This document shows positions 30,389-49,765 of a stretch of DNA of 64,000 nt, piece after piece. The notes under the pieces are model-generated. The model searched no databases. It was not told where the DNA came from and saw only the letters and a program-made list of their open reading frames with translations. Origin of the DNA: an uncultured Candidatus Saccharibacteria bacterium (GTDB lineage Bacteria > Patescibacteriota > Dojkabacteria > JAOAGR01); the NCBI GenBank assembly GCA_964503755.1, contig CAZDBO010000004.1, positions 14,042-78,041 on the forward strand, given 5' to 3'. Position 1 is the stretch's first letter. Each line of letters begins with the position of its first letter. A program made the position numbers and the translations under genes.

Positions 30389-31519
30389 TTATCTTGCTAT
30401 CTTTAACTGTCTCCCTTTCCACACACCTGTTTTGGTCAAAAATGCATAATATGATCTAATACTTAGAGGAATAGTCATAATCATTTGTAAAGGAAAGAGC
30501 AAAATACTATATATCACACCCTGATTTGTCATTCTAGCTTTCATAGTAATGCCTATAACCAAAAATGATAACGCTACAAAGCCAAGATATGGTGAATAAA
30601 ACAATAAATAAACAGGAATCATCACATAAAACACAACTACCGCAAAATTGAATAAAATAAACAAAACTGGATTAGTTCTAGAAATAAGATAATAATTTTT
30701 TGTAAAACCTAAAAATGATTCTTCAAAATTTTTATACATTCTGCACATTACAAAATCATTTGCAAAATATGTGCCTACTTTGTATTTTTCTTTTTTCAAA
30801 AGCCTAGACATTTCAAGATCTTCAACAACCTGATATTTTAATGCTTCATGACCACCTACTCTATCATAAACTTCTCGTTTAATTAAAATAAATTGACCAT
30901 TTGCAGCTGCCAAAGAATGATGAGATAGTTTATAGATACTTATCAATGGCAAAAATGCCGTTAAAAACCATTCCATAAGTGGTACTATCAAAAATTCTCC
31001 AAAAGTTTGCATTTTTTGACTAGAGAAAGCAGAAACCATATCAAATTTATTTTTCTCTAACTCTTCTAAGGCTATATCTAGCGTATATTTATGTAATACA
31101 ACATCTGCATCAATAAAAAGCAAATGCTCACCTATAGCGTACTTTTGAAGATTCCAACAGGCCCAATTTTTACCTAACCAATCATCAGGTAGTTCTGTAC
31201 CTTCAAAAACCCTGATTTTTTCTGGATATTTTGATGCCAGATTATTGAGTACTGCACTTGTGTTGTCTGTTGATTTATCATTTAATACCAATATTTCTAT
31301 ATTTTGATAATTTAAATTAAGACAGGATAAAACAGTTTTTGTTACATTTGTTTCTTCATTACGACAAGGGATAAGTATACTTACTTTTTTATTTTGATCA
31401 GAAAATTTATTAAATCTAAATTTTGGAGCAGTAAAATAATTTATAGTCACTATTGAAAAAGATAACAAAACAAATAAGAGATAAACATAAATCCAATATT
31501 CAACTTCTGCCATGAGCAA
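30389..31519 (-). CDS. Membrane-associated family 2 glycosyltransferase
   Basis: GT-A-like N-terminal region (ILIPCRNEE, DAD-type motif) plus C-terminal TM helices. Confidence 0.6.
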   Translation of the reverse strand: MLMAEVEYWIYVYLLFVLLSFSIVTINYFTAPKFRFNKFSDQNKKVSILIPCRNEETNVTKTVLSCLNLNYQNIEILVLNDKSTDNTSAVLNNLASKYPEKIRVFEGTELPDDWLGKNWACWNLQKYAIGEHLLFIDADVVLHKYTLDIALEELEKNKFDMVSAFSSQKMQTFGEFLIVPLMEWFLTAFLPLISIYKLSHHSLAAANGQFILIKREVYDRVGGHEALKYQVVEDLEMSRLLKKEKYKVGTYFANDFVMCRMYKNFEESFLGFTKNYYLISRTNPVLFILFNFAVVVFYVMIPVYLLFYSPYLGFVALSFLVIGITMKARMTNQGVIYSILLFPLQMIMTIPLSIRSYYAFLTKTGVWKGRQLKIAR

Positions 31520-34489
31520 TTATACCAAATAATCTTTTAGATACTTTCCCGTCCAACTATTAAGATTTTGAATTATCTGGTGAGGTGTACCACATGCAAC
31601 GATTTCTCCTCCCCCATCACCTCCTTCTGGACCTAAATCTATTATGTAATCAGCAGTTTTAATAATATCAAGATTGTGTTCGATCACTAAAATAGTGTTT
31701 CCTTTATCTCTAAGACTATGAAGAACATCCAAAAGTTTGTTTACATCCTCAAAATGCAATCCTGTTGTTGGTTCATCAAGTATATAGAGCGTCCTTCCGG
31801 TATTTTTCTTGGCTAATTCTGTAGCCAGTTTAATTCGCTGTGATTCACCACCAGACAGAGTATTGGCTTGCTGACCTAACTTTATATATCCAAGTCCAAC
31901 TTGTTGTAAAACGCTTAGTTTGTTATGTATTCTAGGTATATTTTGAAAAAACTCTAAAGCCTCATCTACTGTCATTTCTAACACTTCATAAATATTTTTT
32001 CCACGATAAGTGATTTCTAAAGTTTCACGGTTATATCTTTTACCACCACAACTTTCACAAGTCACATAAACATCAGGCAAAAATTGCATTTCAATCTTAA
32101 TAATGCCATCTCCTCTGCAGCTCTCACATCTTCCTCCTTTGACATTAAAAGAAAATCTACCTGATTTATATCCACGCATCTTAGCTTCATTGGTATTAGC
32201 AAAAAGATTTCTGATATCATCAAAAAAGCCAACATATGTCGCCGGATTTGATCTAGGGGTACGACCTATGGGTGATTGATCTACTGCTATAACTTTATCA
32301 ATATTTTCAATACCCTCTATATAATCATGTAATCCTACCTGATAATGCGTATTGTAAAAATAATTATGCAATCTTGTATACAAAATATCATTTATCAGCG
32401 TAGATTTTCCAGATCCAGACACACCAGTAACACATACAAATTTACCAAGTGGTATCGACACATCAATATTTTTTAAATTATTTTGTCTTGCTCCTTTGAT
32501 ACGTATTAATTTATGAAGAGAAATATTTTCAGAACGAGATATATATTTATGCCCGACAATTTTTTCGCCACGTACGTATGGAGCAGTCACAGAAAATGTA
32601 TCTTTCTTTAGATGATTCAGATCACCAGCAAATATGACTTTTCCACCATGTACACCAGCTCCTTCACCCATATCTATTATGTAATCAGCATTTTTTATGG
32701 TATCCATATCATGCTCTACTACGATAACTGTATTTCCTAGATCACGAAGATTTTTTAACGTATTTATAAGCCTGTCGTTATCACGCTGATGTAAACCGAT
32801 TGAAGGCTCATCTAAAACATACAAAACTCCCGAAAGCCCCGACCCAATCTGTGAAGCCAGTCTTATTCTTTGTGCTTCACCACCTGAGAGAGTATTCATA
32901 GTCCTATCAAGTGTCAGATAATTTAGTCCAACAGCTATCAGGAACTGCAATCTTGATCTAATTTCACGAATGATACTGTGAGCTATCTCTGATTTTTGTT
33001 TAGAAAGAGTCAAATACTCATGATAAATTTCACCATCAACTTTGAATTCTCTTTTCACCAATTCATCAGATTCCAAACTTTCAACCCACAAAAAACATTC
33101 TGACAGATTCATTTTTGTGACCTCGATAATATTTTTTCCCCCGACTTTAATACCTAAAACCTCCTTTTTTAATCTCGTTCCGTTACATTCGGTACAAGTA
33201 TTTGTAATCATGTATTTTTCTATCTCCTGTCTAGTCAAGTCAGATTCTGATTCGTTATAACGTCGGTAAAGTGAAGGCATGACCCCTTCAAACTTGGTTT
33301 GATAGGAACCTTTAAATTTTCCTGATTCTATAACTACATCCAAAATCTCTTCAGAACCAAACAAGATCTCATCTATAATCTCTTTTGGAAGATCTTTCAT
33401 AGGTACTCGCAAGCTAAATCCTCGTTTATCTGCTAGAGCTTTTAATATACGAACATACCAACTATCATCATCCAAATTTCGAGACCAAGGAAAAATAGCT
33501 CCCTCCATAATAGTAAGATTTGGGTTATACACAAGCTCTGGCGATATCTCTTTGACAAAACCCAATCCTGCACATTTTGGACAGGCTCCATGAGGAGAAT
33601 TAAAAGAAAAAGTGTGAGGTTCTATCTTTGGATAAGATATCTGATCTTTGGGACAGACCAAATTTTCTGAATAAAAAATATCTTTTTTTTCGTCAAACAA
33701 ATTAACAATTACCTCACCTTGAGAAAAGTGCAATGCCGTCTCGACAGAATCAGTAATACGTTGTTTAAAATTTTTATATTCCTCTTCATTATCAAATCCA
33801 TACTGCTGATAAATCAGCAAAGAATCGTCTTTTTGTCTTTTTGGTATAACTAATCTGTCAACAACAATTTCAATATCGTGCCTTACATGCTTGTTTAGTT
33901 TGATCTCTTCCTCAAGATTTCTCATTTCACCATCAACTCTTACTCTCGCAAATCCTTTATTAAAAAGATTATCAAAAAGATCTGCAAACTCACCTTTTCT
34001 AGCCCTCACCACTGGTGATAAAATCATTATACGTACACCATTTTCTTGATTTAAAGACAAATCCATTATACTATCAACAATTTGTTGTACAGTCTGGGCC
34101 TGTATAGGTCTTCCACATTTGTAACAAAATGGATCCCCTACTCTTGCGAATAAAAGACGCAAATAATCATAAATCTCTGTCGTAGTACCTACAGTTGAAC
34201 GAGGATTATTTGATGCTGTTTTTTGATCAATAGCTATGGCTGGGGATAATCCTTCGATGTGATCCACATCAGGTTTTTCCATGATGCCAAGAAATTGTCT
34301 AGCATATGACGAAAGTGATTCTACATAACGCCTTTGCCCTTCGGCATAGATAGTATCAAAAGCCAAAGAAGATTTACCAGAACCGGAAACACCAGTAATC
34401 ACCACAATTTTGTTTTTGGGAATCTCTACATTTATATTTTTGAGATTATGCACTCTGGCACCACGTATACGAATAACATCGGTAGACAT
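31520..34489 (-). CDS. uvrA: excinuclease ABC subunit A
   Basis: Two ABC ATPase modules ([12 protein letters not shown] and [12 protein letters not shown]), zinc fingers, 989 aa. Confidence 0.95.
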
Positions 34490-34596
34490 CCATGTGAATT
34501 TTATCAGATTAGATAGTTTTTAAAAAATTATCTAATCTTTTTGAAAGAATAATGCAAATTAGCTATTCTTTATGGTTTATAATAAGATAGATATTT

Positions 34597-35721
34597 ATGA
34601 ATATTGTTCAGTTTGATCAATTTGATAAGTATGTTAAAAAAAATATACCTAAAAATCAGCTGCCGATAAAACTGCTAATATTTTTATTAATCATTGTTTC
34701 AATAATTGGTGGCATTTTCTTTGTTTTTAAATCAACAATCGATGAAATAAATAGCTTTGGAACCCTTACAAGCATAAATCAAGAGAGTAAAAAAATAATT
34801 ATACCGAGTGGTACATCATTTGATGGAGTACATGAGATATTGATCTCAGAGGGAATAATACCAGATGAAAAAATTTTTGGATTTTCTAAATACAAACTTT
34901 ATTATTTTTTAAATCCTAATGAAATATTTGTAGTACAAGCTGGTGAATACACCGTCAATCCTAATACAAAAGTAAAAGATATATTTCGCATTATTGGATG
35001 TAAAGAGGTGACCATAACTATCAAAGAAGGCTTACGTATCGAAGAGATAGCCGAAGTTTTATCACAAAAATTATCAAATTTTGATAAAGACAAATTTATA
35101 GATCTAGCTAAAAATTTTTCACCTGTAGAAGAATTAAAATACAAAGAGATATTTCCCAAATTTTTGGAAGGCTATTTATTTCCTGATACATATAGATTTT
35201 GTGATGATACTAATGAAATAAAAATAATCGAAAAAATGCTTATTACATTTGAGCAAAAAGTCTATGAAAATATAAAAGATGAATTAATAGAAAAAGATAA
35301 AAATCTTCATAAAATCATAAAAATAGCCTCTCTGATAGAAAAAGAATCTTCACACAAAGATGATGAAAGTTATATGATCGCAGGAATCATCTACAATAGA
35401 CTTGCAGCAAATATGCCACTAGGTATAGATGCCACAAGTCAGTATGGTGGTGGGTACAATGAAAAACAAAAAACCTGGTGGCCAACAGGTAACGAACTCG
35501 ATAGACTAGTAACAGAAAAAAATCCATATAATACAAGGTTAAACCTAGGTCTACCACCAACACCTATCAGCAATCCCGGCTTTCAAAGCGTAGACGCGGC
35601 CCTAAATCCTAAAAAGTCTGATTACTATTACTACCTCCACGATAGCCAAGGTAATATATACTACGCAAAAACACTAGATGAACATAATAGAAATGTGTGT
35701 AGGTATTTGGCGAGGTGTTGA
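34597..35721 (+). CDS. mltG: Endolytic murein transglycosylase MltG (YceG family)
   Basis: N-terminal TM, YceG-like core (LGIDATSQYG, LPPTPISNPG). TGA stop. Confidence 0.7.
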   Translation: MNIVQFDQFDKYVKKNIPKNQLPIKLLIFLLIIVSIIGGIFFVFKSTIDEINSFGTLTSINQESKKIIIPSGTSFDGVHEILISEGIIPDEKIFGFSKYKLYYFLNPNEIFVVQAGEYTVNPNTKVKDIFRIIGCKEVTITIKEGLRIEEIAEVLSQKLSNFDKDKFIDLAKNFSPVEELKYKEIFPKFLEGYLFPDTYRFCDDTNEIKIIEKMLITFEQKVYENIKDELIEKDKNLHKIIKIASLIEKESSHKDDESYMIAGIIYNRLAANMPLGIDATSQYGGGYNEKQKTWWPTGNELDRLVTEKNPYNTRLNLGLPPTPISNPGFQSVDAALNPKKSDYYYYLHDSQGNIYYAKTLDEHNRNVCRYLARC

Positions 35722-35961
35722 AGAAAGTTAAACCGTCAAAACACGGCGACCTGGAGTAAGAATTTCAACTACAGCTTTCAATGTATTATTGGTTAATAAA
35801 GGTTGCTCTAGAAACATCACTTGCCATGATTCTTTATCAGACACAGCAAAATATGATAAATAAAAAAATCCACTAAAAACTGGATGAGGAATAACGTTGA
35901 TTTTTATAGAATTAGTACGTTGGGGTGGTATTCGTTCAACACTAGGAACATAGATTGTATC

Positions 35962-36360
35962 TCATGCGAAGAACGAAATAACTACCAAAGGTACTTTTTT
36001 ATTAAGTTCATCATGGCAATATCGTGCTATAGCATTTTCTAAATTTACTTCTAATGTACTTAAGTCCGAATAATCAAAGTTTGCACCATATAAACAGCCC
36101 CAATAATCTTCTGCTCCCTGAAACAACCTGATATCTACTCGAGGTGGAAATTTCAGATCAATTTCATATTGTCCCTCACTAGTCGGTAAACCTATGAAAT
36201 AAGTTAACATTTTTCTTAATTACGCATTTCTTCTTTCGGATTAGATTGAAGTAAAATAGTCATACCTTGCGATGACATAGAAATTTCGCTTATGGAAATT
36301 CTAAATAAAGAGGTTGGTGGATTATATATCAAGCAACCCGTTACGTGCGAACCTAGTCCA
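35962..36360 (-). pseudogene. Frameshifted gene remnant. A 49-codon open frame (MNGLGSHVTGCLIYNPPTSLF...) is followed, in another frame, by the 82-aa ORF 35962..36210. A degraded NPP-motif (methyltransferase-like) gene is one guess.
   Basis: Manual translation of the minus strand shows two consecutive open frames offset by 1 nt. Confidence 0.3.
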
Positions 36361-37010
36361 TTCATGGTCTCTAAGATAATTCTAATTTAATTTTATAATG
36401 ATAAAAATTATAAAATAAAAATCAATAATACTGGTAATTTTGTATAAAACCTTTTCAAATCGTATTACGATGATATTGTTTTAAGTGTATTACATTTTAT
36501 TCAAGTTAGATCTTTTACGAAGAAGACAAACCGTACCGTACTTTTTCTAACAGAATATAAATTTATGCACATTTCATACATATTAACCTTTCCAACAGGT
36601 CCATGTTAGTTTTTTATTTATTTCATTTGGTCAATTATTTAATTCATAAACATGGAATCCAATGTAAATTTAAACCATCCTGTATCATGTTTCATCCATT
36701 ACACAATGCGTTGAATTTCTACTATAGATTAAAATGAAAACGTAAATACACAACAAATAAACAAAATTCAGGAATGCTTGCTACAATGGAACCCAACCCC
36801 ATTACTAACTCAATATCAACATAACTAGACATAAATAGATCGATCAACAGAAAATTACATAATTAGCATATTTTCTATGCCCATAATACAACCTAGTAAC
36901 TGTAGCTGTAAATGATAAATTTGTTACCTAATATAAGATCATACAACACTTAAAGTAGTGTTCGTTATAAACTTGAATTTAATTTCTAAAGCATTCATAA
37001 CACATGTATT

Positions 37011-37508
37011 ATGAGACAAAATAATGAAAACTTAGATAGAACATATGGATCTGGTGTATGTGTTATTCCGTTATTAGGTTACCGCACAGAAATAGCTATT
37101 GAACGATTTTCAGGCGATGGTATGCTAACAATCGCAGGACTTGCAGTTTTACCTTTGGATCAGTTAGTAGACGCTCAATTCAATGGATACAAAATAGATA
37201 AAAGTCAAATTGAACGGAGATACAACTACGCTGTTTTAACATTTCTGGGAAATAAAGTTAATGGTGGAATACAATACATGATGGAACCAAATAATAATTA
37301 TTCTTTATATATTAGCGATAGTACGACATGCGCTCATGCAATTGTAACTGTTTTTGTCAATCAAAGAAGACCAAAAAATAATCTAGTTTATATTATCCAT
37401 GCACATTCTGAGTCTGATACAAAAAGATCTATTGTTATTGAAGATTACACCAGAATGCCAAAATATATAAGTAAGTTATATCAACTTAGACGCATTATAG
37501 GTATGTAA
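37011..37508 (+). CDS. Hypothetical protein with non-native composition (Arg/Gly/Ala/Val-rich, unlike the local N/K/I-rich proteome)
   Basis: ORF with locally elevated GC. No recognisable family. Confidence 0.35.
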   Translation: MRQNNENLDRTYGSGVCVIPLLGYRTEIAIERFSGDGMLTIAGLAVLPLDQLVDAQFNGYKIDKSQIERRYNYAVLTFLGNKVNGGIQYMMEPNNNYSLYISDSTTCAHAIVTVFVNQRRPKNNLVYIIHAHSESDTKRSIVIEDYTRMPKYISKLYQLRRIIGM

Positions 37509-37624
37509 AGATAACAATATAATGAATAGATTATAAATCTCATAACAATAACGAGTATTTATCAAGCAAATAGAGTACATTATTTTAATATTAATTAATT
37601 GGTCACTTTATGTTATAATTTCTT

Positions 37625-38134
37625 ATGGTATCATTATCTGCATCTTTTGGTTACTATACAAAACAATGTTTTTTATTTGATGGATTTGGGCAACCTGATG
37701 TCACAGTTGATGGTTATAATCGATTAAATATAGAAAGCTTTGAAAAATCAATTCGTGATTTACCAAAACGTGATTTACCAAAACAATCAAAACAACCAAA
37801 TATAGGTGGAGTCCGAGTTACCATAAACGTCATCAATCAAGCACGCGTTTTCAGTGCTGGTATAGATGGTGTCTATCTACCAAGATGGGCAGTAAGAATA
37901 AAACAAGAAATAGAAGAAAAGAGATGTACTACTCGTTTTACATTAACCGCTATAGGCAGAATTCTGTTGGGCATATATCGTCGTTTATTCGGTATCCAAC
38001 CCTATATATATATCAGGGCACCAAGATATGCATATGGTATTGAAGACAAAGAAGTATTATATCAATGGATTATGGCATTAGATGAAGGAACTTTTGGAAT
38101 TATTGCCTCACTAGTTCCAAAAAATCAATTCTAA
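37625..38134 (+). CDS. Hypothetical protein with non-native composition
   Basis: As above. Confidence 0.35.
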   Translation: MVSLSASFGYYTKQCFLFDGFGQPDVTVDGYNRLNIESFEKSIRDLPKRDLPKQSKQPNIGGVRVTINVINQARVFSAGIDGVYLPRWAVRIKQEIEEKRCTTRFTLTAIGRILLGIYRRLFGIQPYIYIRAPRYAYGIEDKEVLYQWIMALDEGTFGIIASLVPKNQF

Positions 38135-39535
38135 TCACCCCACACTCCCCTCCATATTTAGAGAAATTAATTTATTTAACTCTATCGCATATTCCATAGG
38201 TAACTCTTTGGTAAATACATCAATAAATCCATTTACTATGAGCGAGTAAGCCTCGACTTCGTCTAAACCTCTAGACATGAGATATTTGATCTGCGTTTCT
38301 TTCATTTTGCTGACTGTAGCCTCGTGTTCTATCTCAACTTGATTTGTAGATGCGATGTTGACTGGTATCGTATCAGTCGTTGATTGATCATCCAAGAGCA
38401 ATGCATCACATTTTACATTGACTTTAGCATTTTTGGCTGTTGGTGATACAGAAATTATACCTCTGTATGTAGTATGACCATTGTGTTGACTTACAGATTT
38501 TGCTGTAACTTCTGATGTTGTATTGTTGCCGATATGAAATATTTTGGTACCTGTATCTTGTACCTGATCTCTACCCGCATAAGCTACCGACACTACCACT
38601 CCTTTAGAATTATCACCTTTGAGTATGATGGATGGATATTTCATGGTGACTTTGCTACCAATATTGCCATCGATCCATTCCATAATGGCATTTTCTTCGG
38701 CTATAGCTCTTTTGGTAACTAGGTTGTATACATCACGAGACCAGTTTTGGATAGTAGTATATCTGACTTTTGCACCTTTGAGACAAAATATCTCAACCAC
38801 AGCGGCGTGTAACGAATCTGATGAATACACAGGAGCGGTACACCCCTCGATATAATGCACTGATGAATTTTCATCAGCAATGATAAGAGTCCTTTCAAAT
38901 TGGCCCATGTTTTTGGCATTGATACGGAAATATGCTTGTAGAGGTATAGTTAACTTTACATTTGGCGGAACATAAACAAAACTACCTCCAGACCATACAG
39001 CACTATTTAGTGCAGCAAATTTATTGTCAGATGGTGGAATTAGTTTTCCAAAATATTTTTTAACCAATTCCTCATGCATTTTTAAACCAGTATCCATATC
39101 CGTAAAGACAACCCCCATTTTTTCTAAATCTTCAAGCAAGTGTGTGTAAACCACTTCGGATTCGTACTGAGCACTAACTCCGGCTAAAAACTTTCTTTCT
39201 GCCTCTGGGATACCTAGTCTTTCGTATGTTTCTTTGATACTTTCAGGAAGTTCTTCCCAAGACCGACCTTTTTTCTCAGTAGGTTTGAGATAATAAGTAA
39301 TTTCATCAAAATCTATACCACTCAGATCTGCTCCCCAAGTAGGCATAGGTTTGGACAAAAATATTTCAAAAGCCTTTAACCTAAACTCAAGCATCCATTC
39401 AGGCTCACCTTTGGCTCTGGATATCTGACGTATTACATCTGCATTTAGCCCTTTTGGTACCTTGAGATAACTTACATCCGGCATGCTAAAGCCGTATTTG
39501 TATTCTGATAAAATTTTTAGGTCTGCTTCGTTCAT
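38135..39535 (-). CDS. sufB: Fe-S cluster assembly protein SufB (SufB/SufD family)
   Basis: SufBD beta-helix core, C-terminal ...LNMEGSVG. Follows sufC. Confidence 0.85.
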   Translation of the reverse strand: MNEADLKILSEYKYGFSMPDVSYLKVPKGLNADVIRQISRAKGEPEWMLEFRLKAFEIFLSKPMPTWGADLSGIDFDEITYYLKPTEKKGRSWEELPESIKETYERLGIPEAERKFLAGVSAQYESEVVYTHLLEDLEKMGVVFTDMDTGLKMHEELVKKYFGKLIPPSDNKFAALNSAVWSGGSFVYVPPNVKLTIPLQAYFRINAKNMGQFERTLIIADENSSVHYIEGCTAPVYSSDSLHAAVVEIFCLKGAKVRYTTIQNWSRDVYNLVTKRAIAEENAIMEWIDGNIGSKVTMKYPSIILKGDNSKGVVVSVAYAGRDQVQDTGTKIFHIGNNTTSEVTAKSVSQHNGHTTYRGIISVSPTAKNAKVNVKCDALLLDDQSTTDTIPVNIASTNQVEIEHEATVSKMKETQIKYLMSRGLDEVEAYSLIVNGFIDVFTKELPMEYAIELNKLISLNMEGSVG

Positions 39536-39550
39536 AATTTGATTAAAAAA

Positions 39551-40279
39551 TTAAGATTTCTTATTGTGATGATAATGCAATTTTTCTATTTCTGAAATAT
39601 CTATATCATAAAATTTTTTATCTCTAAGCTCCACTATACGATTGGGCTCTAATGTCTTAACAAACTCTAAACTATGAGAAACTATAAGAAACGTTGTCCC
39701 CGCTTTAGCTTGTTCTCTGATAACCTCCGCAATCCTAGCCCGAGATTTTATATCAAGCCCCGAATCTACCTCGTCCAATATAGCAATTTTTGGCTGTAAT
39801 ACGAGCATCTGTAAAATCTCTGCTTTTCTTTTTTCTCCACCAGAAAAACCCTGATTTAGGTCTCGTTTCAAAAACTCTTCAGAAAGTCCGATTTTTTCGA
39901 TTTTTTCTTTTATAGATTTTCTGATTTTGAAAATAGATGTCGTAGCGTCTTGATTGAATGCCTTATAAGCATTGATCAGAAACTGTTCAAAATTTATACC
40001 CTCAAACTCTGGTGGTGATTGAAAACTTACAAAAAGTCCAAGTCTTGCTATTTCAAAAGTTTCCATCCCTATGGTCTCAACACCATTTATCATGACACTA
40101 CCAGATCTCTCATAATCCTCAAAACCTAAAAGCGACATTGCAAAAGAACTTTTTCCTGTACCGTTCTCACCCAGTATCACAGTCACTGTACCGGGTTCCA
40201 ACTCTAAATTTGCATTTTCTAATATCTGTTTATTGTTCTCTCTAATGGTTAGAGAGTATGATGTGACTTTTAGAGACAT
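39551..40279 (-). CDS. sufC: Fe-S cluster assembly ATPase SufC
   Basis: ABC ATPase motifs: Walker A GENGTGKSS, signature FSGGEKRK, Walker B ILDEVDSGLD. Confidence 0.9.
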   Translation of the reverse strand: MSLKVTSYSLTIRENNKQILENANLELEPGTVTVILGENGTGKSSFAMSLLGFEDYERSGSVMINGVETIGMETFEIARLGLFVSFQSPPEFEGINFEQFLINAYKAFNQDATTSIFKIRKSIKEKIEKIGLSEEFLKRDLNQGFSGGEKRKAEILQMLVLQPKIAILDEVDSGLDIKSRARIAEVIREQAKAGTTFLIVSHSLEFVKTLEPNRIVELRDKKFYDIDISEIEKLHYHHNKKS

Positions 40280-40571
40280 TTTTGGATTATAGCAAAAAAT
40301 GAAAAATTTAAATTTGCATAGGAATATATAATGTGGTATAATATACTATAGACACAGGTAAGTTTAGAGTTCATCAATAAGTTCGTACTGGCAGTCAATT
40401 ACTAGAAATGCCAGAAACTTTAAAGGAAATAGGACAATCTTTGCATCCTCTAGAAAGATCAGTTATAAATTATTAAGTCCAAAAATCAAATACCATGTAA
40501 TTCGAGTATTATCGGGCAGAGGGGGCATAAGTGGTACCCTTTTAGCAAGACCTATAACGCCGGATCCTGTT

Positions 40572-41036
40572 ATGCGTCAATACGTAAAAAAATTGTTAGG
40601 TAGTCTATTTATGGCAGCCATTGAGCTAGTACCTCAACATTTTTTATTAAAAGAACAAGTTCTCGAAGCAGTAGTTCGGGCTTTAGGTGACTATCCAAGC
40701 TGTGTTGGTGTTAGAATAAACTACAATTTGCGTTCGCTAGGCGTCCCTAGAACACTTGGTGATCTAATGGGTACAATGTCATCACTGGATGAAGAAAAAT
40801 TAAAAATGGCATTATTACAACCTGGACCACATACACAAGCTTTAATAATGGATGGTTATGGTCAAAATGGGGTCCGCATTGATATCACTGGTTTACCTGG
40901 TCCGGATAGTGAAACTCGATTGGTTGTACTCCAATATCTACGTGGTATCGGAATAAAAGGAGGCAGCTGGATACCAATACACAAACCCGAACTGGTACTA
41001 GAAGATCAAGGACTCGTATTGACACCAAAATATTAG
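40572..41036 (+). CDS. Hypothetical protein with non-native composition (Leu/Gly/Val/Pro-rich)
   Basis: ORF only. Confidence 0.35.
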   Translation: MRQYVKKLLGSLFMAAIELVPQHFLLKEQVLEAVVRALGDYPSCVGVRINYNLRSLGVPRTLGDLMGTMSSLDEEKLKMALLQPGPHTQALIMDGYGQNGVRIDITGLPGPDSETRLVVLQYLRGIGIKGGSWIPIHKPELVLEDQGLVLTPKY

Positions 41037-41038
41037 CA

Positions 41039-41251
41039 TTGACAGTAAGATACCGTTATGGCTTTGAAACACTAGTATTCTCTGGATTGGCAACAATACC
41101 CAAAGGTATACCTGTACCAACAGAAGGTATTGATAAATCTGTAACAATTCCTTGGAACAAACTCAAACTGGCAGAACAAATTAAATTTAAAGAAAGACTC
41201 GTTGCGTATAGTGAATGTAATTTGTTGGCACCATCCCCCATCGGTTACTAG
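41039..41251 (+). CDS. Small hypothetical ORF, possibly a gene fragment
   Basis: ORF only. Confidence 0.2.
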   Translation: MTVRYRYGFETLVFSGLATIPKGIPVPTEGIDKSVTIPWNKLKLAEQIKFKERLVAYSECNLLAPSPIGY

Positions 41252-42475
41252 ATTGCTCGGTGCTTAGGGAATTTCCACATGGTGATGGATTTCTTGAAGT
41301 CGGCCAAAAGCCTGAAATAGGTCAGTTTATTCGTCAATATTATTATTTTGCATTACAAGAATACATTTTACATATAAAACCTTGTTCAGAATCTTACGCT
41401 ATAGGGAAAAAGGTACACCGCTCACTAGTAATATGATGTATGGTCCCGATATCGGTATTGTGACGGGCGGTTTAACTTCGGAACATTTGCAAAAGTTATA
41501 TGAATTATATCGAATTAACATACCCGTTATTATTCATCTGTATTAGGTGTACTAGGAGTAAATCCAGAAAATGCTGTAAAAAATCTGGAAAGCTTGATTT
41601 GTAGTCCACCAAGTAATGGTGAACATCTTAATCTTGTACAAATAAAAGGAATACACGAGCTTATTAAATTTTTGACTGGCACAAGATTTCTTCGAATTGA
41701 TTCTTTACCGTTATCTCAATATCCTCGTTTTCTAGAAATTATTTGAACAACTTTGGCTTCTTTGCTTAACCTATTTTCTAATGTGCAAACTGCATTATTG
41801 AGATTACCTATTTTACCTCCACGAGCTAGTGTAAATAATTTTTGAGGCTATGAGAGATTTTGTTAGAGTTTGTTTACCAAATGATTTACTTTCGCCAGAA
41901 TATAAAGCAGATGTATACACTCCAGAACCAAGACAAATAGGTCTACGAATAATTCGTAATAATAAATCATTATAAGATAATCAATGTACCATAGAGTCTT
42001 GATAAAGAAATTTATTAGATAAATTAATATTACACAAATAAAATTTTATTAAACAAATATAATTTTGAAATGAAGTTTTGATATTACTATAATGTGGATA
42101 ATAATTCAAAAAAATACAGTATAGTAATGTTTTTATAAATAATATTTCATTATTCACATAATAGTGCCAATGGATTAGTTTTTAACTTTATTGACTTGTA
42201 TCACTCTACCCTAGTTTATGTTAACCCATACTATAAGTCCAACGGTATCATAAATAGAAACAAAATAATCTGACAGAAGATACTCTAAAGCATCAAGTAA
42301 AACCACAACAAATATAGCAGAAAGACAAGAACAATCAGGATTCATATCGATTCTTGCCAGCATGCGTGCAGGAGTATTGACGATAAAAAGAATATGGCAA
42401 ATAATCTAAAATAGTGTATAAAACTCTTTATATCAAATTATTCTGATTTTTCAAATTTTCTAATATAATACCGAC

Positions 42476-44368
42476 ATGCCTATGACCGGTCACGAACTAA
42501 AACAAAAATTTATATCGTTTTTTGTATCAAAAAATCATGTAGAAATCCCAAATGCCTCACTGATACCAGAAAATGATCCATCAGCACTTTTTACCAATTC
42601 TGGTATGCATCCAATAGTCAGATATCTTATGGGAGAACCTCATCCTATGGGCAAAAGACTTGTTAATTATCAACGTGCTGTCAGAACTGGTGATATAGAA
42701 GATGTAGGCAGTACCAAAAGACACCTTACATTTTTTGAAATGCTTGGTGAATGGTCGCTTGGTGACTATGGCAAAAAAGAATCATTAGAATGGACTTTTG
42801 AGTTTTTGATAGATGTATTGAAATTAGATCCCAAAAGACTCCACGCTACAGTCTTTAGAGGCAATGAAAAAGTGCCAGCTGATGAAGAATCTATAGAAAT
42901 TTGGAAAGAAATCTTTAAAAAACATGGTATCGAACCTACGATTGGTGATAAATTTGAAGATAATGGCGATTCTCCAAGAATAATTAGACTCACAGAAAAT
43001 GATAATTTTTGGCCAAAAGGCAGAGTAAAAGGTCCATGTGGTCCTTGTAGCGAAGTTTATTATGATCTAAAGGCTGGTGAGAATGCAGATGAGAGATACT
43101 TCGAAGTAGTTAATAACGTATTTATGACTTTATATCAAGATGAAGAAGGAAATTTCACTGAATTAAAACAAAAAAATGTAGATGTAGGTTGGGGATTTGA
43201 CAGACTTTTGATGCTTTTGCAAAACTTGGACTCAGATGGTAATCTAGATCCCAAAGCAACCGTTTTTGAAACAGATTCATTTGCAGATGCTAAAAAGTAC
43301 CTAATACAGATAACAAATTCCGACAATAGTAGTTATTTCTCTGACAAGGAATATCAAAAATCGATCCGTGTGATATTGGATCACATACGTGCATCGGTGA
43401 TGATCATAGGTGATGGTATTTTGCCATCAAATAAAGATCAAGGATATGTACTTCGTAGACTGATAAGACGAAGCATGACCTATGGATATAGTTATTTGTC
43501 AAACACTATAGAACCATATCTTCAGATTGCAAACATATTTATTGATCATCTATCAAAGGATAAATGGTATACATTTTTAATTGATAAAAGAGACAATATC
43601 ATAAATACTTTATCTGATGAACTACAAAAATTCTCTAAAATATTAAAAACAGGGATTAGTGAACTGTCAAAAGTAAAAGATAATCAAATCAGCGGTGAGT
43701 TGGCATTTAGATTAAAAGAAGCTCATGGTATACCACTCGAAATTACAGAATTAATAGCTAAATCTCAAGGTAAGACTGTCGATACTGAAAAATTTGAAGA
43801 ACTGATGAAAAAGCACAGGGAAAAATCGAAAACGGCCGGTGAGAAAAAATTCGTAGGTGGACTTGGCGGTTATAGTGAAAAAGAAATCATGTATCATACC
43901 TGTGCACATCTACTACTTGCTGGGTTACAAAAATTATTTGGCAAGGATATCCATCAAAAAGGACAAAATATCACACCTGAGAGATTAAGATATGATTTTA
44001 ATTTTACTTCACAATTTACATCGGAAGAGCAAAAAAAATTAGAAGATTGGATAAATGAAAGAATAAAAGAAAATCTAAAGGTCGAATTTGTGGAAATAGA
44101 ATATCAAGATGCACTGAGACTTGGTGTAGAGGGTGTTTTCCATAATAAATATCAGCAGTATTCAAAAGCAAAGGTATATGGTATTTTCCCAGCTGAATAT
44201 GAAATGTCTGAATTGATCAAAATTGGTGACACATCAAAATTTGTGTCTCTCGAATTCTGTGGTGGTCCTCATGTATCAAATACAAATGAAATAAGAGGAA
44301 GACTAAAAATACAAAAAGTAGAAAATGTCGGTGCAGGGATAAAAAGAATCCGAGCTGTATTAGAATAA
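42476..44368 (+). CDS. alaS: Alanine--tRNA ligase, short form (catalytic, tRNA-binding and editing domains; no C-Ala domain)
   Basis: FTNSGM class II motif, WPKGRVKGPCGPCSE, editing-domain HxxxH and CGGPHV motifs, 630 aa. Confidence 0.8.
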   Translation: MPMTGHELKQKFISFFVSKNHVEIPNASLIPENDPSALFTNSGMHPIVRYLMGEPHPMGKRLVNYQRAVRTGDIEDVGSTKRHLTFFEMLGEWSLGDYGKKESLEWTFEFLIDVLKLDPKRLHATVFRGNEKVPADEESIEIWKEIFKKHGIEPTIGDKFEDNGDSPRIIRLTENDNFWPKGRVKGPCGPCSEVYYDLKAGENADERYFEVVNNVFMTLYQDEEGNFTELKQKNVDVGWGFDRLLMLLQNLDSDGNLDPKATVFETDSFADAKKYLIQITNSDNSSYFSDKEYQKSIRVILDHIRASVMIIGDGILPSNKDQGYVLRRLIRRSMTYGYSYLSNTIEPYLQIANIFIDHLSKDKWYTFLIDKRDNIINTLSDELQKFSKILKTGISELSKVKDNQISGELAFRLKEAHGIPLEITELIAKSQGKTVDTEKFEELMKKHREKSKTAGEKKFVGGLGGYSEKEIMYHTCAHLLLAGLQKLFGKDIHQKGQNITPERLRYDFNFTSQFTSEEQKKLEDWINERIKENLKVEFVEIEYQDALRLGVEGVFHNKYQQYSKAKVYGIFPAEYEMSELIKIGDTSKFVSLEFCGGPHVSNTNEIRGRLKIQKVENVGAGIKRIRAVLE

Positions 44369-44456
44369 AAGATAGTATTTGTGATTTGTTCACTTTTTAC
44401 ACATTCAGAAAAAATAAGAATGTAAAAAAATATCCTTAATAAACATGTAGTCATAT

Positions 44457-44919
44457 AACCACCTGGTAAACCAGGAGAGGTTACAGACACCTCTGTTCTA
44501 TTGGTAACCAAACGCATCAGATATTTATCAAAAAACTTAGAAAAACACAAGTGACCCCACGGTTTACCGTGGGGTTAAAAGATAACAAAATGTCAATTTA
44601 ACATTTATTTAATTCCAACTATGTAATAAAACTCATAAACACACTTGTAACAAACTATTGATTTTCTATCTATTAAAAAATGATATTATTTATTCTTAAG
44701 TATAATACACCCTGGTGAACCAGTGGATTACAAATACATTTATTCTCTACTCTCTACTAATTAAAAAACACTTGATATTTATTAAAAACTCAAAAAGTGA
44801 TCCCATGGTTTACCATGGGGTCAAAAAATTCCCAAAACCTATTTAATAAAGAATTGTAATCAATAATACGATTGAAACGACTCAGTTATAACTCCATGGT
44901 TTACCACGTAGTTCTAATT
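44457..44919. repeat. Cluster of five related GC-rich palindromic hairpins (core CCnnGGTWWACCnnGG) in the convergent alaS/ileS intergenic region. Copies lie at about 44457-44485, 44550-44581, 44709-44733, 44797-44828 and 44891-44919.
   Basis: Copies read directly: gtgaccccacggtttaccgtggggtt, gtgatcccatggtttaccatggggtc, cacctggtaaaccaggag, ccctggtgaaccagtgg, ctccatggtttaccacg. Confidence 0.6.
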
Positions 44920-47835
44920 TCACAAACTTTCCATTCTTACTTGTACTGTATGATCATCAACTTCAATAGAAAAACTACCAGCATCCAAATTTGTCATGAC
45001 AATCTCTTTTATAAATACCTCAGCTTTTAATTTATCTGTGAACTCATGTACCAATGCTTTCACAACATCCGAATCTGTATCTAAAAAGATTTTTATCATT
45101 TGTCCCATTTGCATACCATTTTGCTTCCGTAATACCTGTAATTCTCGCTTTAATTCGGCATATAGTCCTTCTTTTCTAAGTTCATCATTAATATCAGTAT
45201 CCAAATATACAACACAGTAATCATTTTCTGTCGATGGCATATTTTGAATTTCGTGATTCTCAACTCTTACTTCTTTGACATTTACTTCATCTTTTACAAC
45301 TTCAAGATATTCCTGACCTAGTGTTCTATCAGATTTGAATACTACTACCAACCTGGACAGAGGCTGTTTTACTTTTATACCATTTTCCGAACGTATAAAA
45401 AGACCAAAAGTACAAATATCTCGTGTCATATCCATATTTTCTATAAGACTAGAGTCATAAGCATCAAAATCAGGATAATCTTCCATATGAATAGATTCTT
45501 TAGCATCCGCGATAAATGGTCTTACAATATTTTGATACATATATTCAGGCAAAAATGGGGCAAATGGTGCTAGCAAAAGAATACCTTTTGTAAATACATA
45601 ATACAAAGTTTCTAAAGCGTCTTTTTCTCCATTAGCAAACCTATCTCTACTTCGTCTAATAAACCATTTTGAAATATCTAGGAAGAACGCCTTCACAGTT
45701 TCCATAGACTTTTGGATATCATAATTATCCATATATTTTGTAACCTCTATTGCAGTCTGTTTTAATCTCTCTACAACCCATCTATCTAATATATTGTATT
45801 TGGATTTTAATTCATAATTTTTATAAAAATTTGGCTCAGGTGTCCAATTATTCAATTCTGCATAAGTTGTAAGATAAACATAAATATTCCAAAAAGGAAT
45901 TAAAAATTCTTGCTGAATAGTACGTGCAGTTTTATCAGAGATAGTTGCATCTTCGCATCTCACAATAGGAGTTGAGAAGAAATTTATACGCATAGTATCA
46001 CCACCATAGTTTTGTATCATTACAAGTGGATCTGTATAGTTTTTTTTGCTTTTACTCAATTTTTGTCCGTTATCATCTAACACTAATCCATTTACGACAA
46101 CATTCTCGAAAGCTTCTTTTCCAAACAAAGCAGTACCTATAGCATGTAGTGTATAAAACCAGCCTCTTGTCTGATCTACTCCTTCGGAGATAAACTGGGC
46201 CGGATATTTTTGCTCAAATTTTTCTTTATTTTCAAACGGATAATGGAACCTAGCAAATGGCATTGCGCCAGAGTCATACCATACATCCAATACGTCAGGT
46301 ATACGAGTATACGTTTCACCTTCGTATTCAAAAGTTATCTCGTCTATGTATGGTCTATGTGGATCATCGATTCTTTTACCAGATAATTTCTCTAACTCCT
46401 CATAAGATCCTATTACCATTACTTTTCCTGATGGACTTTTCCATATCGGTAGCGGAGTACCCCAATATCTAAATCTTGATATAGACCAATCTTTTATTTC
46501 AGCCAACCAATTTCCAAATCTACCTTCTTTGATATGTTCAGGTATCCAATTTATTCTTCTATTGTTTTCTACCAACTTATCACGTATCTTACTGACCGCT
46601 ATATACCACGAAGTAATAGGTTTGTAGATCAAGGGTGTGTTCGTGCGCCAACAAATAGGCATATCGTGTTCATAATCTTCATATTTGAAAAGTAAATTTT
46701 TATTCTTTAAATATTCAACAATCTTGGGATTCGCATCACGATAATTCATACCTGCAAAATCCTTTATTACATCCAAAAAGTCACCTTGATCATCCAACAC
46801 ATCAATTGATTTTATTCCAATTTGATTGAAAATCTCATTATCCTCTGCACCGTAAGGCGCTAAATGTACAACGCCAGTTCCAGATTCTGTAGTCACATGA
46901 AAGCCATAAACAACTTTGAAACAATTTTCCCTACCTATGAAATAATCAAATAATGGTTCATATTCCAGGTCAACAAGAGTTTCAGGACTAACATCAGCAT
47001 CCAATACATGATATTTTCGATCAGCAAAAACTTTTTCTATCAATTCATTTGCTACATAAAAATTTTCCCCGTCAGAATGAACTTTTGAATATGTGATATT
47101 TTCTCCAACAGCCAATGCAAAATTTGTCGGCAATGTCCAGGGTGTAGTAGTCCAAGCAAGTATGTATTCGTTATCTCGGTCTTTAATTTTGAATTTAACA
47201 GTTACAGCTGGATCAACTACTGGTTTATATCCACCAAGTGCCACCTCTGCATTAGAAAGTACAGTACCACCACGCGTAGAATATGGAACAACCTTAAATC
47301 CTTCATACAGCAAACCCTTATTATAAAGCTCTTTCAAAGACCACCAAATAGACTCAATATAACCTTTATCCATTGTTGCATATTCTTCTCTATCATTAGT
47401 CAGACGTCCCATTTTTTTCTCTAGCTCAACAATACCAGCCCTATACTTTAGTACCAAATTTCTACAATCTTCATTGAATTTTGCTACACCGTATCTTTCA
47501 ATATCCTTTTTTTCTTTGAATTGATGAATTTTCTCTACTTCTATTTCTACAGGTAAACCTTGACAATCCCATCCCAAGGATCTTTCAACCTTGTATCCTT
47601 TCATCGTCCAATATCTAGGGATTAAGTCTTTAATAGCAAATGTAAGCATATGACCATGATGTGGATCACCGTTTGCCGTTATTGGCCCATCATAAAATGT
47701 TTTTACTTTATCATTTGGTCTTACATCTATTGATTTGTTTAATATATCGTTTTCTTCCCAAAATTTTAGTATTTCTTGTTCTATTTGATAAAAATTTACT
47801 TTTTGTTTTTCTCTCTTTATTTTTTTATTTGACAT
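44920..47835 (-). CDS. ileS: isoleucine--tRNA ligase
   Basis: HMGH and KMSKS (KLSKSKKN) class I motifs, 971 aa. Confidence 0.95.
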   Translation of the reverse strand: MSNKKIKREKQKVNFYQIEQEILKFWEENDILNKSIDVRPNDKVKTFYDGPITANGDPHHGHMLTFAIKDLIPRYWTMKGYKVERSLGWDCQGLPVEIEVEKIHQFKEKKDIERYGVAKFNEDCRNLVLKYRAGIVELEKKMGRLTNDREEYATMDKGYIESIWWSLKELYNKGLLYEGFKVVPYSTRGGTVLSNAEVALGGYKPVVDPAVTVKFKIKDRDNEYILAWTTTPWTLPTNFALAVGENITYSKVHSDGENFYVANELIEKVFADRKYHVLDADVSPETLVDLEYEPLFDYFIGRENCFKVVYGFHVTTESGTGVVHLAPYGAEDNEIFNQIGIKSIDVLDDQGDFLDVIKDFAGMNYRDANPKIVEYLKNKNLLFKYEDYEHDMPICWRTNTPLIYKPITSWYIAVSKIRDKLVENNRRINWIPEHIKEGRFGNWLAEIKDWSISRFRYWGTPLPIWKSPSGKVMVIGSYEELEKLSGKRIDDPHRPYIDEITFEYEGETYTRIPDVLDVWYDSGAMPFARFHYPFENKEKFEQKYPAQFISEGVDQTRGWFYTLHAIGTALFGKEAFENVVVNGLVLDDNGQKLSKSKKNYTDPLVMIQNYGGDTMRINFFSTPIVRCEDATISDKTARTIQQEFLIPFWNIYVYLTTYAELNNWTPEPNFYKNYELKSKYNILDRWVVERLKQTAIEVTKYMDNYDIQKSMETVKAFFLDISKWFIRRSRDRFANGEKDALETLYYVFTKGILLLAPFAPFLPEYMYQNIVRPFIADAKESIHMEDYPDFDAYDSSLIENMDMTRDICTFGLFIRSENGIKVKQPLSRLVVVFKSDRTLGQEYLEVVKDEVNVKEVRVENHEIQNMPSTENDYCVVYLDTDINDELRKEGLYAELKRELQVLRKQNGMQMGQMIKIFLDTDSDVVKALVHEFTDKLKAEVFIKEIVMTNLDAGSFSIEVDDHTVQVRMESL

Positions 47836-47860
47836 AGTTTTTTTATTAATAAAACTAAAT

Positions 47861-47894
47861 AAAAAAGGCTCCCTGAAAAATTCAGGGAGCCTTT
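47861..47894 (-). terminator. Strong intrinsic terminator on the minus strand (GGCTCCCTGAA stem, AAA loop, then a U-run), 25 nt upstream of the ileS start codon
   Basis: Perfect 11-bp stem read directly. Confidence 0.7.
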
Positions 47895-48081
47895 AATGCT
47901 CGTTACCGTCCTGGTTCCTTGTATGGTCAAAACTTTAACAATGCCATACAAGCTTTCATAGTCCGTTTCGTGAACCACACGTTGGGTTTTACTGACATGA
48001 ATAAATCATGCTTTCTTCCCAATCCCTCGCTGCTGATAACAGCTAATAACGGGAATTTAAGCTTAAATGATTGTAAATGAT
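47895..48081 (-). promoter_or_regulatory. GC-elevated leader between rplY and ileS ending in the terminator above. Candidate T-box or attenuator leader for ileS.
   Basis: A terminator abutting the start codon. A possible specifier-like UUAUCAG (AUC, Ile) sits in a CUG...CAG hairpin. The segment GGAACCAGGACGGTAACG resembles the T-box consensus only partially. Confidence 0.3.
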
Positions 48082-48738
48082 TTACTCTTTATCGTCAACT
48101 TCTTCCTCTTTATCTGATTGTTGCGATGCTAAAATCTCTTGTGTAACAGCATTTACATCTATTGTTTCCTCAGTAGTAGATGCGGACGTTGTAGCAATTG
48201 TTAATTCTTTATCTTCTTCACGAACAAGTGAAATGCCTTCTGGAAGTTGTATATCACCAACACTAATACTCTCTCCTGCTCGTAGATTTTTTACGTCAAC
48301 GACAATCTCATGAGGGATATTTGCAGGAAGACCTCTAACTTCGATTTCATCTGTTACTTGTATCACAATCAAACCTTGTTCTTTTACAGCGATAGAAATT
48401 TCCTCATTTATAAGCACTACAGGCACCTTTGTTGTTATTTCCTCATCCATCTTTACCTCACGAAATGTAACATGAATATAATCTCTAGTCACCGGATCAA
48501 TCTGAACCTCATCAATAAATACATTGTGTACTGTATCATTCAACTTCAATTTTATAATAGTTGTATGTCCCGCCTCACGAAATAATGAATCAAATTGTTT
48601 TTTATCGACTACAGTGTTAAAATTACCTTTATATCCATAAATGGATGAAGGCAATTTACCTTGTCTTCTTAATGATTTATTTTTTTTACCCAATACTTCT
48701 CTTAAGGTTGCTTGTAAAGTTAATTTTGATGTTGACAT
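48082..48738 (-). CDS. rplY: 50S ribosomal protein L25 / general stress protein Ctc, with an acidic C-terminal tail
   Basis: L25/Ctc N-terminal beta-barrel region, 218 aa. Confidence 0.75.
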   Translation of the reverse strand: MSTSKLTLQATLREVLGKKNKSLRRQGKLPSSIYGYKGNFNTVVDKKQFDSLFREAGHTTIIKLKLNDTVHNVFIDEVQIDPVTRDYIHVTFREVKMDEEITTKVPVVLINEEISIAVKEQGLIVIQVTDEIEVRGLPANIPHEIVVDVKNLRAGESISVGDIQLPEGISLVREEDKELTIATTSASTTEETIDVNAVTQEILASQQSDKEEEVDDKE

Positions 48739-49187
48739 AACTTTTTTGATATTATCCTCACCGCAGAAAATCTGCGATTACTTTAAATATCAGCAAATGA
48801 TAACATAAAAATTTTAATAATCAATAAGTATTAAATCTTGATAACCAATTAATTATAAAAATACCAAATACAATTCGCCCATTATAACTTTTAGTAAAAT
48901 TAGGTTAATCTAAAACTTTATCTTGAATCAAGAATACACATCAAAAATAGATATTTGTTTTATAAAATAAAATTCGAAGAATTAAAACGCAAGAATTGAA
49001 GAATTATTGATTTTTGTTGAAAAATTATATTTATGTTACTCAAAATCATGAAAATCATGAAAATCAACAAAATTTATTATAATTAAGATATACATAAATT
49101 TCTTTATTTATTCAGGCCGATATAACATCAGAAATTTGACCATAGAAAGAAAAGTTCTTTATCTTTTCTCTTATACAGTGTCGTTTT

Positions 49188-49261
49188 TGGCTTCCCCGCT
49201 AGGATTCGAACCTAGACCAGAGCGTTAACAGCGCACTGTGCTACCATTACACCACAGGGAA
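49188..49261 (-). tRNA. tRNA-Asn (anticodon GTT)
   Basis: Hand-folded. U1-A72 acceptor as in E. coli tRNA-Asn, D-arm GTGT-AATGGTA-GCAC, anticodon loop CTGTTAA, T-arm CTAGG-TTCGAAT-CCTAG, discriminator G, encoded CCA. Confidence 0.8.
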
Positions 49262-49765
49262 CCGACCAATGTATTCTAGCAATATATCAATATCATGTCA
49301 AAATAGAAACACAATAAACTTAATATTCACATATAGATACATTTAGTATAATACTTTTCGAAAACTTAAAATTTATTTATGTAAAATATCTATACAACAT
49401 AATTTTTTATAATTCAAAAAATCTAAAAAACCCGTTGAGCCTCATCCAGCTAACTGACTAGAACAATCCTGTCCTACTCTACAACAAACTCCCTGGCCTT
49501 GTGCATTTCTACCAGCACAATATTCTCACCCACCACAAAATCTGTCATGACATATTTGATTACATACAGTTTCTGCACTTGTACCTGGTGGTGCACACTT
49601 GTTATTGCCATCTTCACATTGTATTGGTTGACAACGATTTGACGGACATTGAGCGTAACTTATTTGATCACATGGCAATGTATCTATTGGATTGGGACTT
49701 GTGTTAGATGATGGGGGTGTTTGAGTTGGTTGAGGATTTTGAGAAGGTGGTCTATTACTACCACT

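Follow-up and report, generated by a model that had tools for sequence, protein, structure and literature searches.

Between mltG and alaS, positions 35722 to 42475 of a Candidatus Dojkabacteria chromosome probably form a vertically inherited block rather than a recent import. The organism belongs to the Candidate Phyla Radiation (CPR), and the positions are those of our window, the whole 64,000-nucleotide piece of contig CAZDBO010000004.1 (assembly GCA_964503755.1) that was analysed, with a GC content of about 31%. At the centre of the block lie sufB and sufC (together sufCB), and around them lie orphan open reading frames (ORFs) and relics, including members of four families that we call X, Y, W' and Z. 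We think it likely that what the block records is gene decay of the kind common in reduced genomes, to which recurrent inactivation of W' adds a twist. A first-pass annotation, made from the sequence alone, had read the same segment as a compositionally foreign, gene-poor island undergoing amelioration and decay.

To place the window among its relatives, we recovered sister-lineage contigs by exact-protein look-ups. The comparative sample comprised three lineages and nine assemblies. Lineage 2 is represented by five assemblies (L082 to L086) with mutual differences of at most 0.1% and lineage 3 by L087, L089 and L090, and the window's own strain was also found in independent Logan contigs (L001, L088 and L098). 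The gene order uvrA-mltG-[A]-sufB-sufC-[B]-alaS-ileS is the same in the window, lineage 2 and lineage 3. Only the two intervals A (35722-38134) and B (40280-42475) vary between lineages; the content of A differs even between L082 and L083, while sufCB and the general layout are present in all three lineages. Core genes of the relatives share 82 to 88% DNA identity with the window. At the amino acid level, MltG is 84 to 87% identical in the sister lineages, with a ratio of nonsynonymous to synonymous divergence (dN/dS) of 0.10, and AlaS is 89% identical to both lineage 2 and lineage 3. Synonymous divergence (dS) from the window is about 0.7 for lineage 3 and about 1.0 for lineage 2, making lineage 3 the nearer of the two.

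DNA homology to the relatives ends no more than about 20 to 45 bp from the ORF ends that face intervals A and B, with the left break at 35718-35746 and homology returning at 42431-42434. The alaS-ileS spacer is likewise unalignable between lineages and core dS is 0.66 to 1.22, so such dissimilarity is what would be expected of weakly constrained sequence and is not, on its own, proof of replacement. The first-pass annotation had proposed looking for relatives in which mltG and alaS are adjacent. They never are; what is adjacent, in lineage 3, is sufC and alaS, with a mere spacer of 258 to 268 bp at interval B. In more distant contigs recovered by a metagenome scan with AlaS (57% and 38% identity), sufCB does not lie beside alaS, which indicates that the layout is specific to this clade and leaves room for a much older relocation or transfer of sufCB. 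The corresponding metagenome scan with MltG returned no match.

The two central genes are native and under very strong purifying selection. Relative to lineage 2, SufB shows 98% amino acid identity (dS 1.07, dN/dS 0.011) and SufC 93% (dS 1.21, dN/dS 0.036), and their dS values of 1.07 to 1.21 compare with 0.90 to 1.22 for uvrA, mltG, alaS and ileS. sufB and sufC also have the highest GC content at third codon positions (GC3; GC1 and GC2 for the first and second) in the window, at 0.306 and 0.284. In lineage 2 the GC3 of sufB is 0.308, despite near-saturated synonymous sites, and such equality after a dS of about 1 marks it as a stable property of the gene and not as ongoing amelioration.

The flanking genes, the sufCB operon and the contents of the two intervals are as follows.

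34597 to 35721, plus strand: mltG (YceG family), the conserved left flank; Pfam PF02618, E 2e-69
35728 to 36210, minus strand: pseudogene of family X, full length, with one in-frame TGA at 35962-35964
36211 to 37010: non-coding, AT-rich spacer (GC 0.26) with no positive coding score in any frame over 36240-37000
37011 to 37508, plus strand: ORF165, an intact singleton orphan; GC3 0.199
37625 to 38134, plus strand: ORF169, an intact member of family Y that converges on sufB and abuts it
38135 to 39535, minus strand: sufB, with SUFBD_core and SufBD_N domains; Pfam PF01458 (E 2e-79) and PF19295
39551 to 40279, minus strand: sufC, an ABC ATPase; Pfam PF00005
40368 to 41251, plus strand: probable W' pseudogene, divergent from sufC, with no start codon in 40368-40571
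41260 to 41975, plus strand: relic of family Z, multiply frameshifted, containing the MMYGPDIGIVTGG... peptide at 41382-41546
41991 to 42475: AT-rich spacer (GC 0.25) without coding signal, ending in the alaS promoter region
42476 to 44368, plus strand: alaS (630 aa), the conserved right flank; Pfam PF01411 and PF07973

Our counts bear out the collapse in coding density that had drawn attention to this segment. Taken together, tRNAs and ORFs of at least 100 aa cover 53% of 35722-42475, the lowest among all same-sized windows, compared to 86% of the rest of the window; without the three orphan ORFs (ORF165, ORF169 and ORF154, the last at 40572-41036) coverage drops to 32%. As had also been reported, neither 36360-37010 nor 41252-42475 contains an ORF of 60 aa or more. 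Once relics are included, 75% of the segment is or once was coding, and the genuine spacer that remains consists of two stretches, 36211-37010 and 41991-42475, plus some 229 bp upstream of sufC. The three orphan ORFs lie in open frames of 171, 172 and 222 codons, whereas in 99% of 1,000 dinucleotide shuffles the longest frame does not exceed about 130 codons, implying that they did not arise by chance.

In interval A, the X-family gene converges on mltG, with 6 nt between the two stop codons. A one-frame tblastn alignment of 162 aa runs from 36210 to 35731 (minus strand) against the intact 159-aa X of L082 (40% identity, E 3e-31). It is broken by a single in-frame TGA, and we therefore read the listed 82-aa ORF (35962-36210) as the N-terminal half of a nonsense-mutated gene. 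TGA ends 12 of 47 core genes, which identifies the codon in X as a true stop. Stop-codon reassignment was considered and rejected: reading TGA, TAG or TAA as sense gives no long merged ORFs. The X relic has a GC3 of 0.206 and a codon score of +0.197. A 49-aa ORF just upstream (36216-36365, minus strand) is probably spurious.

On the other side of the spacer, ORF169 shares 36% full-length identity with a 163-aa ORF that lineage 3 has in the corresponding place (L090 8-499; E 1e-23), and it appears to be a bona fide, fast-evolving gene (dS 0.81, dN/dS 0.71). L082 keeps just a C-terminal remnant of Y beside sufB. Profile comparison with hhalign detected no relation of Y to ORF165 or to a 166-aa ORF of L083. 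Considered together, X and Y have core-like dS (0.81 to 1.25) and a dN/dS of 0.57 to 0.74, compared to 0.01 to 0.10 for six core genes. This combination implies that both families diverged in step with the rest of the genome and were only very weakly constrained, and the core-like dS places these orphans already in the common ancestor of the lineages, so that they are not recent cargo.

Interval B is more heavily eroded. Window positions 40509-40775 align with residues 78 to 160 of the 317-aa W' of lineage 2, a weak homology (30% identity over 89 aa, E 0.002 to 0.016) whose assignment leans partly on common position and orientation. The initial Met of ORF154 aligns to W' residue 99, the 68 open codons upstream of it hold no start codon, and near 41030 a change of frame (+0 to +2) leads into a 70-aa ORF at 41039-41251. 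Most likely, ORF154 comes from the interior of a W' gene that has been broken, and the 70-aa ORF is another piece of it. Next to alaS, where L082 has an intact 262-aa Z, tblastn with that protein gives matches in two different frames, one at 41412-41510 and one at 41582-41770 (sum E 3e-5).

A sliding codon-score plot of the plus strand traces the same erosion. The coding signal occupies frame +0 at 40460-41030, +2 at 41030-41240, +1 at 41240-41400, +0 at 41390-41540, +2 at 41510-41720 and +0 at 41840-41990, and it is silent beyond. At least five frame changes thus lie between 40460 and 41990 in the sequence as assembled. Such frame hopping on one strand is characteristic of frameshifted pseudogenes, and it accounts for both the surplus open frames and the antisense peptides in interval B. 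The first-pass annotation had noted many short open frames with protein-like composition and quoted examples, all of which we located: the MMYGPDIGIVTGG... ORF and minus-strand frames of interval B. An excess of short frames holds for 41037-41990, where 18 frames reach 40 codons or more and shuffles lead one to expect 6.8 (0 of 500 shuffles had as many), but not for 36366-37010, which equals shuffled sequence. As for the minus-strand peptides, they are antisense shadows of plus-strand frames that score higher there.

Decay, as originally proposed, is therefore upheld by the nonsense codon in X, by ORF154 and the 70-aa ORF as broken pieces of W', and by the frameshifted Z at 41260-41975, a gene that is intact in a sister lineage. 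In the window the genes thus stand at different stages of loss: Y and ORF165 intact, X with one nonsense codon, W' startless and frameshifted, and Z in fragments.

X, Y, W' and Z have no relatives outside this clade. Against 5.8 billion proteins, the X profile retrieved clade members only, the Y profile found two members (ORF169 and the lineage-3 ORF) and no others, and ORF154 found itself alone. ORF165 likewise matched only itself when 1.84 billion representative proteins were searched exhaustively with HMMER, and tblastn found no relatives of it in the sister islands. The orphan families had no match in viral contigs and the orphans none in PDB sequence searches. Pfam, PHROGs, NCBIfam and PADLOC gave no match for the orphan ORFs of the window, for the island ORFs of the relatives or for intervals A and B translated in six frames, and the same six frames contained no integrase relic recognisable with Pfam. 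AlphaFold2 models of Y and X had predicted local distance difference test scores of 41.7 and 35.2 and were unusable for fold search. In the light of these negative searches (Pfam, PHROGs, NCBIfam, PADLOC and PDB), the earlier suggestions of effector or toxin cargo and of organellar origin are unsupported.

Several observations weigh against simple decay of inherited genes. A dN/dS of 0.6 to 0.7 fits relaxed constraint and a mixture of constraint and positive selection alike, and the weak homology on which the window's W' assignment depends has been described above. ORF165 might have been acquired late, have arisen de novo or have diverged to an extreme degree, and the expression of both ORF165 and ORF169 is a prediction only. 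In every lineage the orphans have elevated GC1 and GC2, and several lineage-2 island ORFs have a raised GC3 as well, of 0.29 to 0.32. Between the strains L082 and L083, 99.9% identity extends to a point 4 nt short of the sufB stop and resumes at the mltG stop, and the 2.1 to 2.5 kb between those flanks cannot be aligned. Lastly, the density of W' knock-outs is about sixfold above a rough neutral expectation.

The last two of these observations come from lineage 2. In interval A of L082 and L083 the whole cassette has been replaced, not decayed; the X alleles of the two strains are only 31% identical (dS 1.25). L082 also carries two duplicated gene ends. One is a 43-bp duplication of the mltG 3' end (11795-11837 and 13138-13180) that brackets 1.3 kb, and the other is an 89-bp direct duplication that takes in the promoter of alaS together with its first 13 codons (5279-5367 and 7204-7292, 93% identical) that encloses Z and brackets an inserted segment of 1.84 kb. 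Both bracketed segments contain orphan ORFs, and the duplications may be scars of single-crossover insertion; no recombinase gene is evident. The W' gene (L082 7470-8423, minus strand, 317 codons) is knocked out in every lineage-2 assembly by four independent lesions: Q56 to TAA in L082; E33 to TAA in L084 and L086; Q70 to TAA together with M1I in L085; and a frameshift through one additional G in L083. W' holds 9 variable sites in 954 bp, compared to 7 in about 17 kb elsewhere, or about 22 times the single nucleotide polymorphism (SNP) density of its surroundings, and none of its eight substitutions is synonymous. These figures hint at selection for loss rather than mere neglect. We also observed three non-synonymous differences within codons 13 to 23 of the 166-aa ORF beside sufB (L084 4066-4096), in strains that are otherwise 99.9% identical, and none of the genic substitutions seen among the lineage-2 assemblies was synonymous.

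One reading of this turnover is that the intervals are hypervariable replacement islands in which diversity is itself selected, for example because genes for defence, host interaction or toxin/immunity come under negative frequency-dependent selection. Cassettes would then be exchanged at gene ends, and both gene loss and the inactivation of W' would be adaptive. The wholly different interval A of L082 and L083 within near-identical flanks, their divergent X alleles, the W' lesions with their SNP density and absence of synonymous change, the clustered changes beside sufB, and gene-end duplications such as a Campbell-type insertion would leave in lineage 2 all speak for it. Set against these, there was no match in PADLOC, Pfam or PHROGs and no recombinase, and visual inspection of the sequences reveals neither an obvious signal peptide nor an obvious membrane segment. 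Moreover, the core-like dS of X and Y between lineages fits vertical descent, the island borders in the window lack repeats, and the sample is small. On balance we consider selected replacement possible but unlikely as the general explanation, and retain decay of inherited genes as the reading of the window.

Composition bears on a different alternative. The segment had been described as compositionally foreign, a description that proved weak: in 2-kb windows, GC rises by z +1.3 to +2.0 over 37-42 kb and never exceeds +2.0, and tetranucleotide correlation z ranges from -0.8 to -1.5. Under a codon model for which 44 core genes served as the training set (core range 0.283 +/- 0.069 bits per codon), ORF165, ORF169 and ORF154 scored 0.209, 0.277 and 0.276 bits per codon, sufB 0.277 and sufC 0.298, and for all five the annotated frame was the best of six. 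The orphans have a GC3 of 0.176 to 0.245, compared to 0.223 +/- 0.031 for core genes, and show the gradient GC1 > GC2 > GC3 that is typical of real genes. With GC3 and codon score native, the surplus GC lies in the first two codon positions and hence in amino acid composition. GC1 and GC2 are 0.58 and 0.36 in ORF154 and 0.55 and 0.42 in the W' of L082, compared to 0.42 and 0.30 in core genes. The enrichment in R, G, A, V, L and P ascribed to all three orphan proteins is accordingly marked in ORF154 (z +4.0) and present in ORF169 (+1.8), but reaches just +1.0 in ORF165. The strongest compositional outlier of the window lies elsewhere: a 954-aa protein (2629-5493, minus strand) with three matches to DUF285, a BspA-like repeat, has a GC of 0.37, GC2 above GC1 and a tetranucleotide correlation z of -5.5, and so deviates more than the flagged region.

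Raised GC1 and GC2 could also mean that the orphans descend from an old transfer, out of a GC-richer donor into the ancestor of the lineages, with synonymous sites ameliorated since. The elevation above core values in every lineage, the higher GC3 of some lineage-2 island ORFs and the R+G+A+V+L+P enrichment of up to z +4 favour this, and de novo birth from spacer of 25% GC should, we expect, yield proteins rich in Lys, Asn and Ile. Yet no donor or homologue appeared in the 5.8 or 1.84 billion proteins or in viral contigs, GC3 and codon usage of the orphans in the window are fully native, and a dN of 0.5 to 0.8 should have pulled positions 1 and 2 toward AT as well. We give an old transfer modest weight at most. 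On the preferred reading, the raised GC would come from proteins rich in Gly, Ala, Arg, Pro, Val and Leu rather than from a foreign mutational background.

A further proposal would join the orphans and the turnover. W', X, Y and Z might make up an undescribed module specific to the clade, for example in host interaction or toxin-like, that is conditionally harmful, repeatedly knocked out and swapped by single crossovers which leave core-gene ends duplicated (43 bp of mltG at its 3' end, 89 bp of alaS at its 5' end), so that the flanks of sufCB would serve as a dedicated contingency locus and not as a mere decay zone. We regard this proposal as doubtful.

It is very unlikely that the mltG-alaS interval, sufCB included, is a recent foreign island that is still ameliorating and perhaps derived from an organelle or host. 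The modest rise in GC and the high GC3 of sufB and sufC would suit such an origin, as would the lack of sufCB beside alaS in distant Dojkabacteria-like contigs. In a genome-collection scan, SufB was 60 to 66% identical to SufB of bacteria and archaea, with none above 66% and no sister-lineage relatives among the matches listed, a scan that is biased by the choice of peptide patterns. Among those matches the best outside the clade came from Bacillota and Acidobacteria (62 to 66%), compared to 60% for another Patescibacteria genome. Against a horizontally acquired, ameliorating segment stand the synteny kept in three lineages, the dS of sufB and sufC equal to that of their flanks with dN/dS of 0.01 to 0.04, their native codon usage, and a sufB GC3 that is unchanged after a dS of about 1. 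The flagged region contains no tRNA or tmRNA, the region lacks an integrase and a flanking repeat, and we detected no att-like sites in the window and no significant direct or inverted repeats at the island borders. As in SUF operons generally, which have sufCB as their core (ycf24 and ycf16 in plastids), sufB and sufC are adjacent and co-oriented, 15 bp apart. Here, however, they stand alone, without sufD, sufS or sufU, of which neither genes nor relics were recognisable with Pfam in six frames of both intervals, and there is no link to plastids.

It is extremely improbable that the ORF-free stretches are structured non-coding RNAs or large regulatory leaders: although two stretches that lack coding signal, of about 800 bp and about 485 bp, stand out in an otherwise compact genome, these are the most AT-rich stretches (GC 0.25 to 0.26), they are not conserved in relatives, Rfam gave no match at the gathering score or at E values up to 5, tRNA and tmRNA searches were negative, and a sliding-window RNA fold scan had a mean z of about 0 with 4% of windows below -2, the same as a uvrA control. 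A promoter and terminator scan found fewer sites than in shuffles and was thus uninformative. Equally, we give next to no credence to an assembly chimera of this metagenome-assembled genome: Logan contigs from the same sample (SRR11582145) do end at 37667/37716 and 40347/40591, inside the intervals, but they match 30521-37667, 37716-40347 and 40591-50210 at 99.96 to 100%, they bridge three of the four core-island junctions (mltG/A, A/sufB and B/alaS), and X, Y, W' and Z have the same order and orientation in the sister lineages. The contig ends at 37667-37716 and 40347-40591 may reflect strain heterogeneity or low coverage.

Decay zones rich in pseudogenes are found in reduced or host-dependent genomes such as those of Mycobacterium leprae and Rickettsia. 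The segment resembles them in that its relics bear nonsense codons and frameshifts and are recognisable against intact copies in relatives, in its relaxed constraint (dN/dS 0.57 to 0.74) and eventual deletion (the empty site of lineage 3), and in the untouched conserved genes on either side. It differs in that the decaying genes are orphans of one genus-level clade rather than known housekeeping or metabolic genes, and in that W' was hit four times in a near-clonal group, beyond simple neglect. Flexible or hypervariable replacement islands at fixed chromosomal positions have been described in marine bacteria. Our intervals share with these a fixed site between core genes, sharp borders at gene ends and, in the relatives L082 and L083 though not in the window, unrelated content within 99.9% identical flanks. 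However, they are tiny (2 to 3 kb, one to three genes), hold no recognisable glycosylation, surface, defence or mobility genes, and differ between lineages mostly in ways that fit in-place divergence with core-like dS. Classical acquired islands, finally, have a similarly lower coding density, slightly raised GC and hypothetical proteins, but the window lacks an integrase, a tRNA target and flanking repeats, its codon usage and GC3 are native, and sufCB at its centre keeps its synteny and has diverged together with the core genome.

We propose that the sufC-sufB operon sits between two accessory intervals, one toward mltG that holds X, ORF165 and Y and one toward alaS that holds W' and Z. In the simplest history, W' and Z would be ancestral, deleted in lineage 3 and decaying in the window. 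A reductive ratchet may drive the process: AT-biased mutation would make TAA from CAA or GAA, small indels would disrupt genes that the cell can do without or that harm it under some conditions, and deletion would later clear the relics. Occasional recombination may, in addition, swap or insert whole cassettes at gene ends.

These results correct a misreading to which an AT-rich CPR genome is open, in that a gene-poor and slightly GC-richer stretch around sufCB mimics an imported island. They also offer a small, clean case of gene loss in the CPR, with intact, nonsense, frameshifted and deleted states side by side. For annotation, ORF154, which had been proposed as cargo, should be recorded as a pseudogene fragment. 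In near-clonal populations W' has been inactivated independently several times, which hints at selection against a protein specific to the CPR and can be put to the test.

Other features of the window deserve brief mention. In both alaS and ORF169, a TATAAT box lies just 7 to 13 nt 5' of the ATG (42445-42478 and 37605-37627; 7 nt for ORF169) and there is no Shine-Dalgarno-like sequence, a combination that suggests leaderless or near-leaderless transcripts for these two genes. The alanyl-tRNA synthetase (AlaRS) is short, at 630 aa in the window and 628 aa in relatives. Its Pfam matches (tRNA-synt_2c and tRNA_SAD) extend to residue 625, so that the usual C-terminal extension is apparently missing, and NCBI names a relative's copy 'alanine--tRNA ligase-related'. 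Further along the window, at 58469-60060, about 1.6 kb again lacks an ORF of at least 100 aa. Codon scoring picks out nothing there but short coding-like patches, at about 59350-59480 (minus strand) and about 59620-59930 (plus strand), and this stretch may be a further decay zone or may hold small genes.

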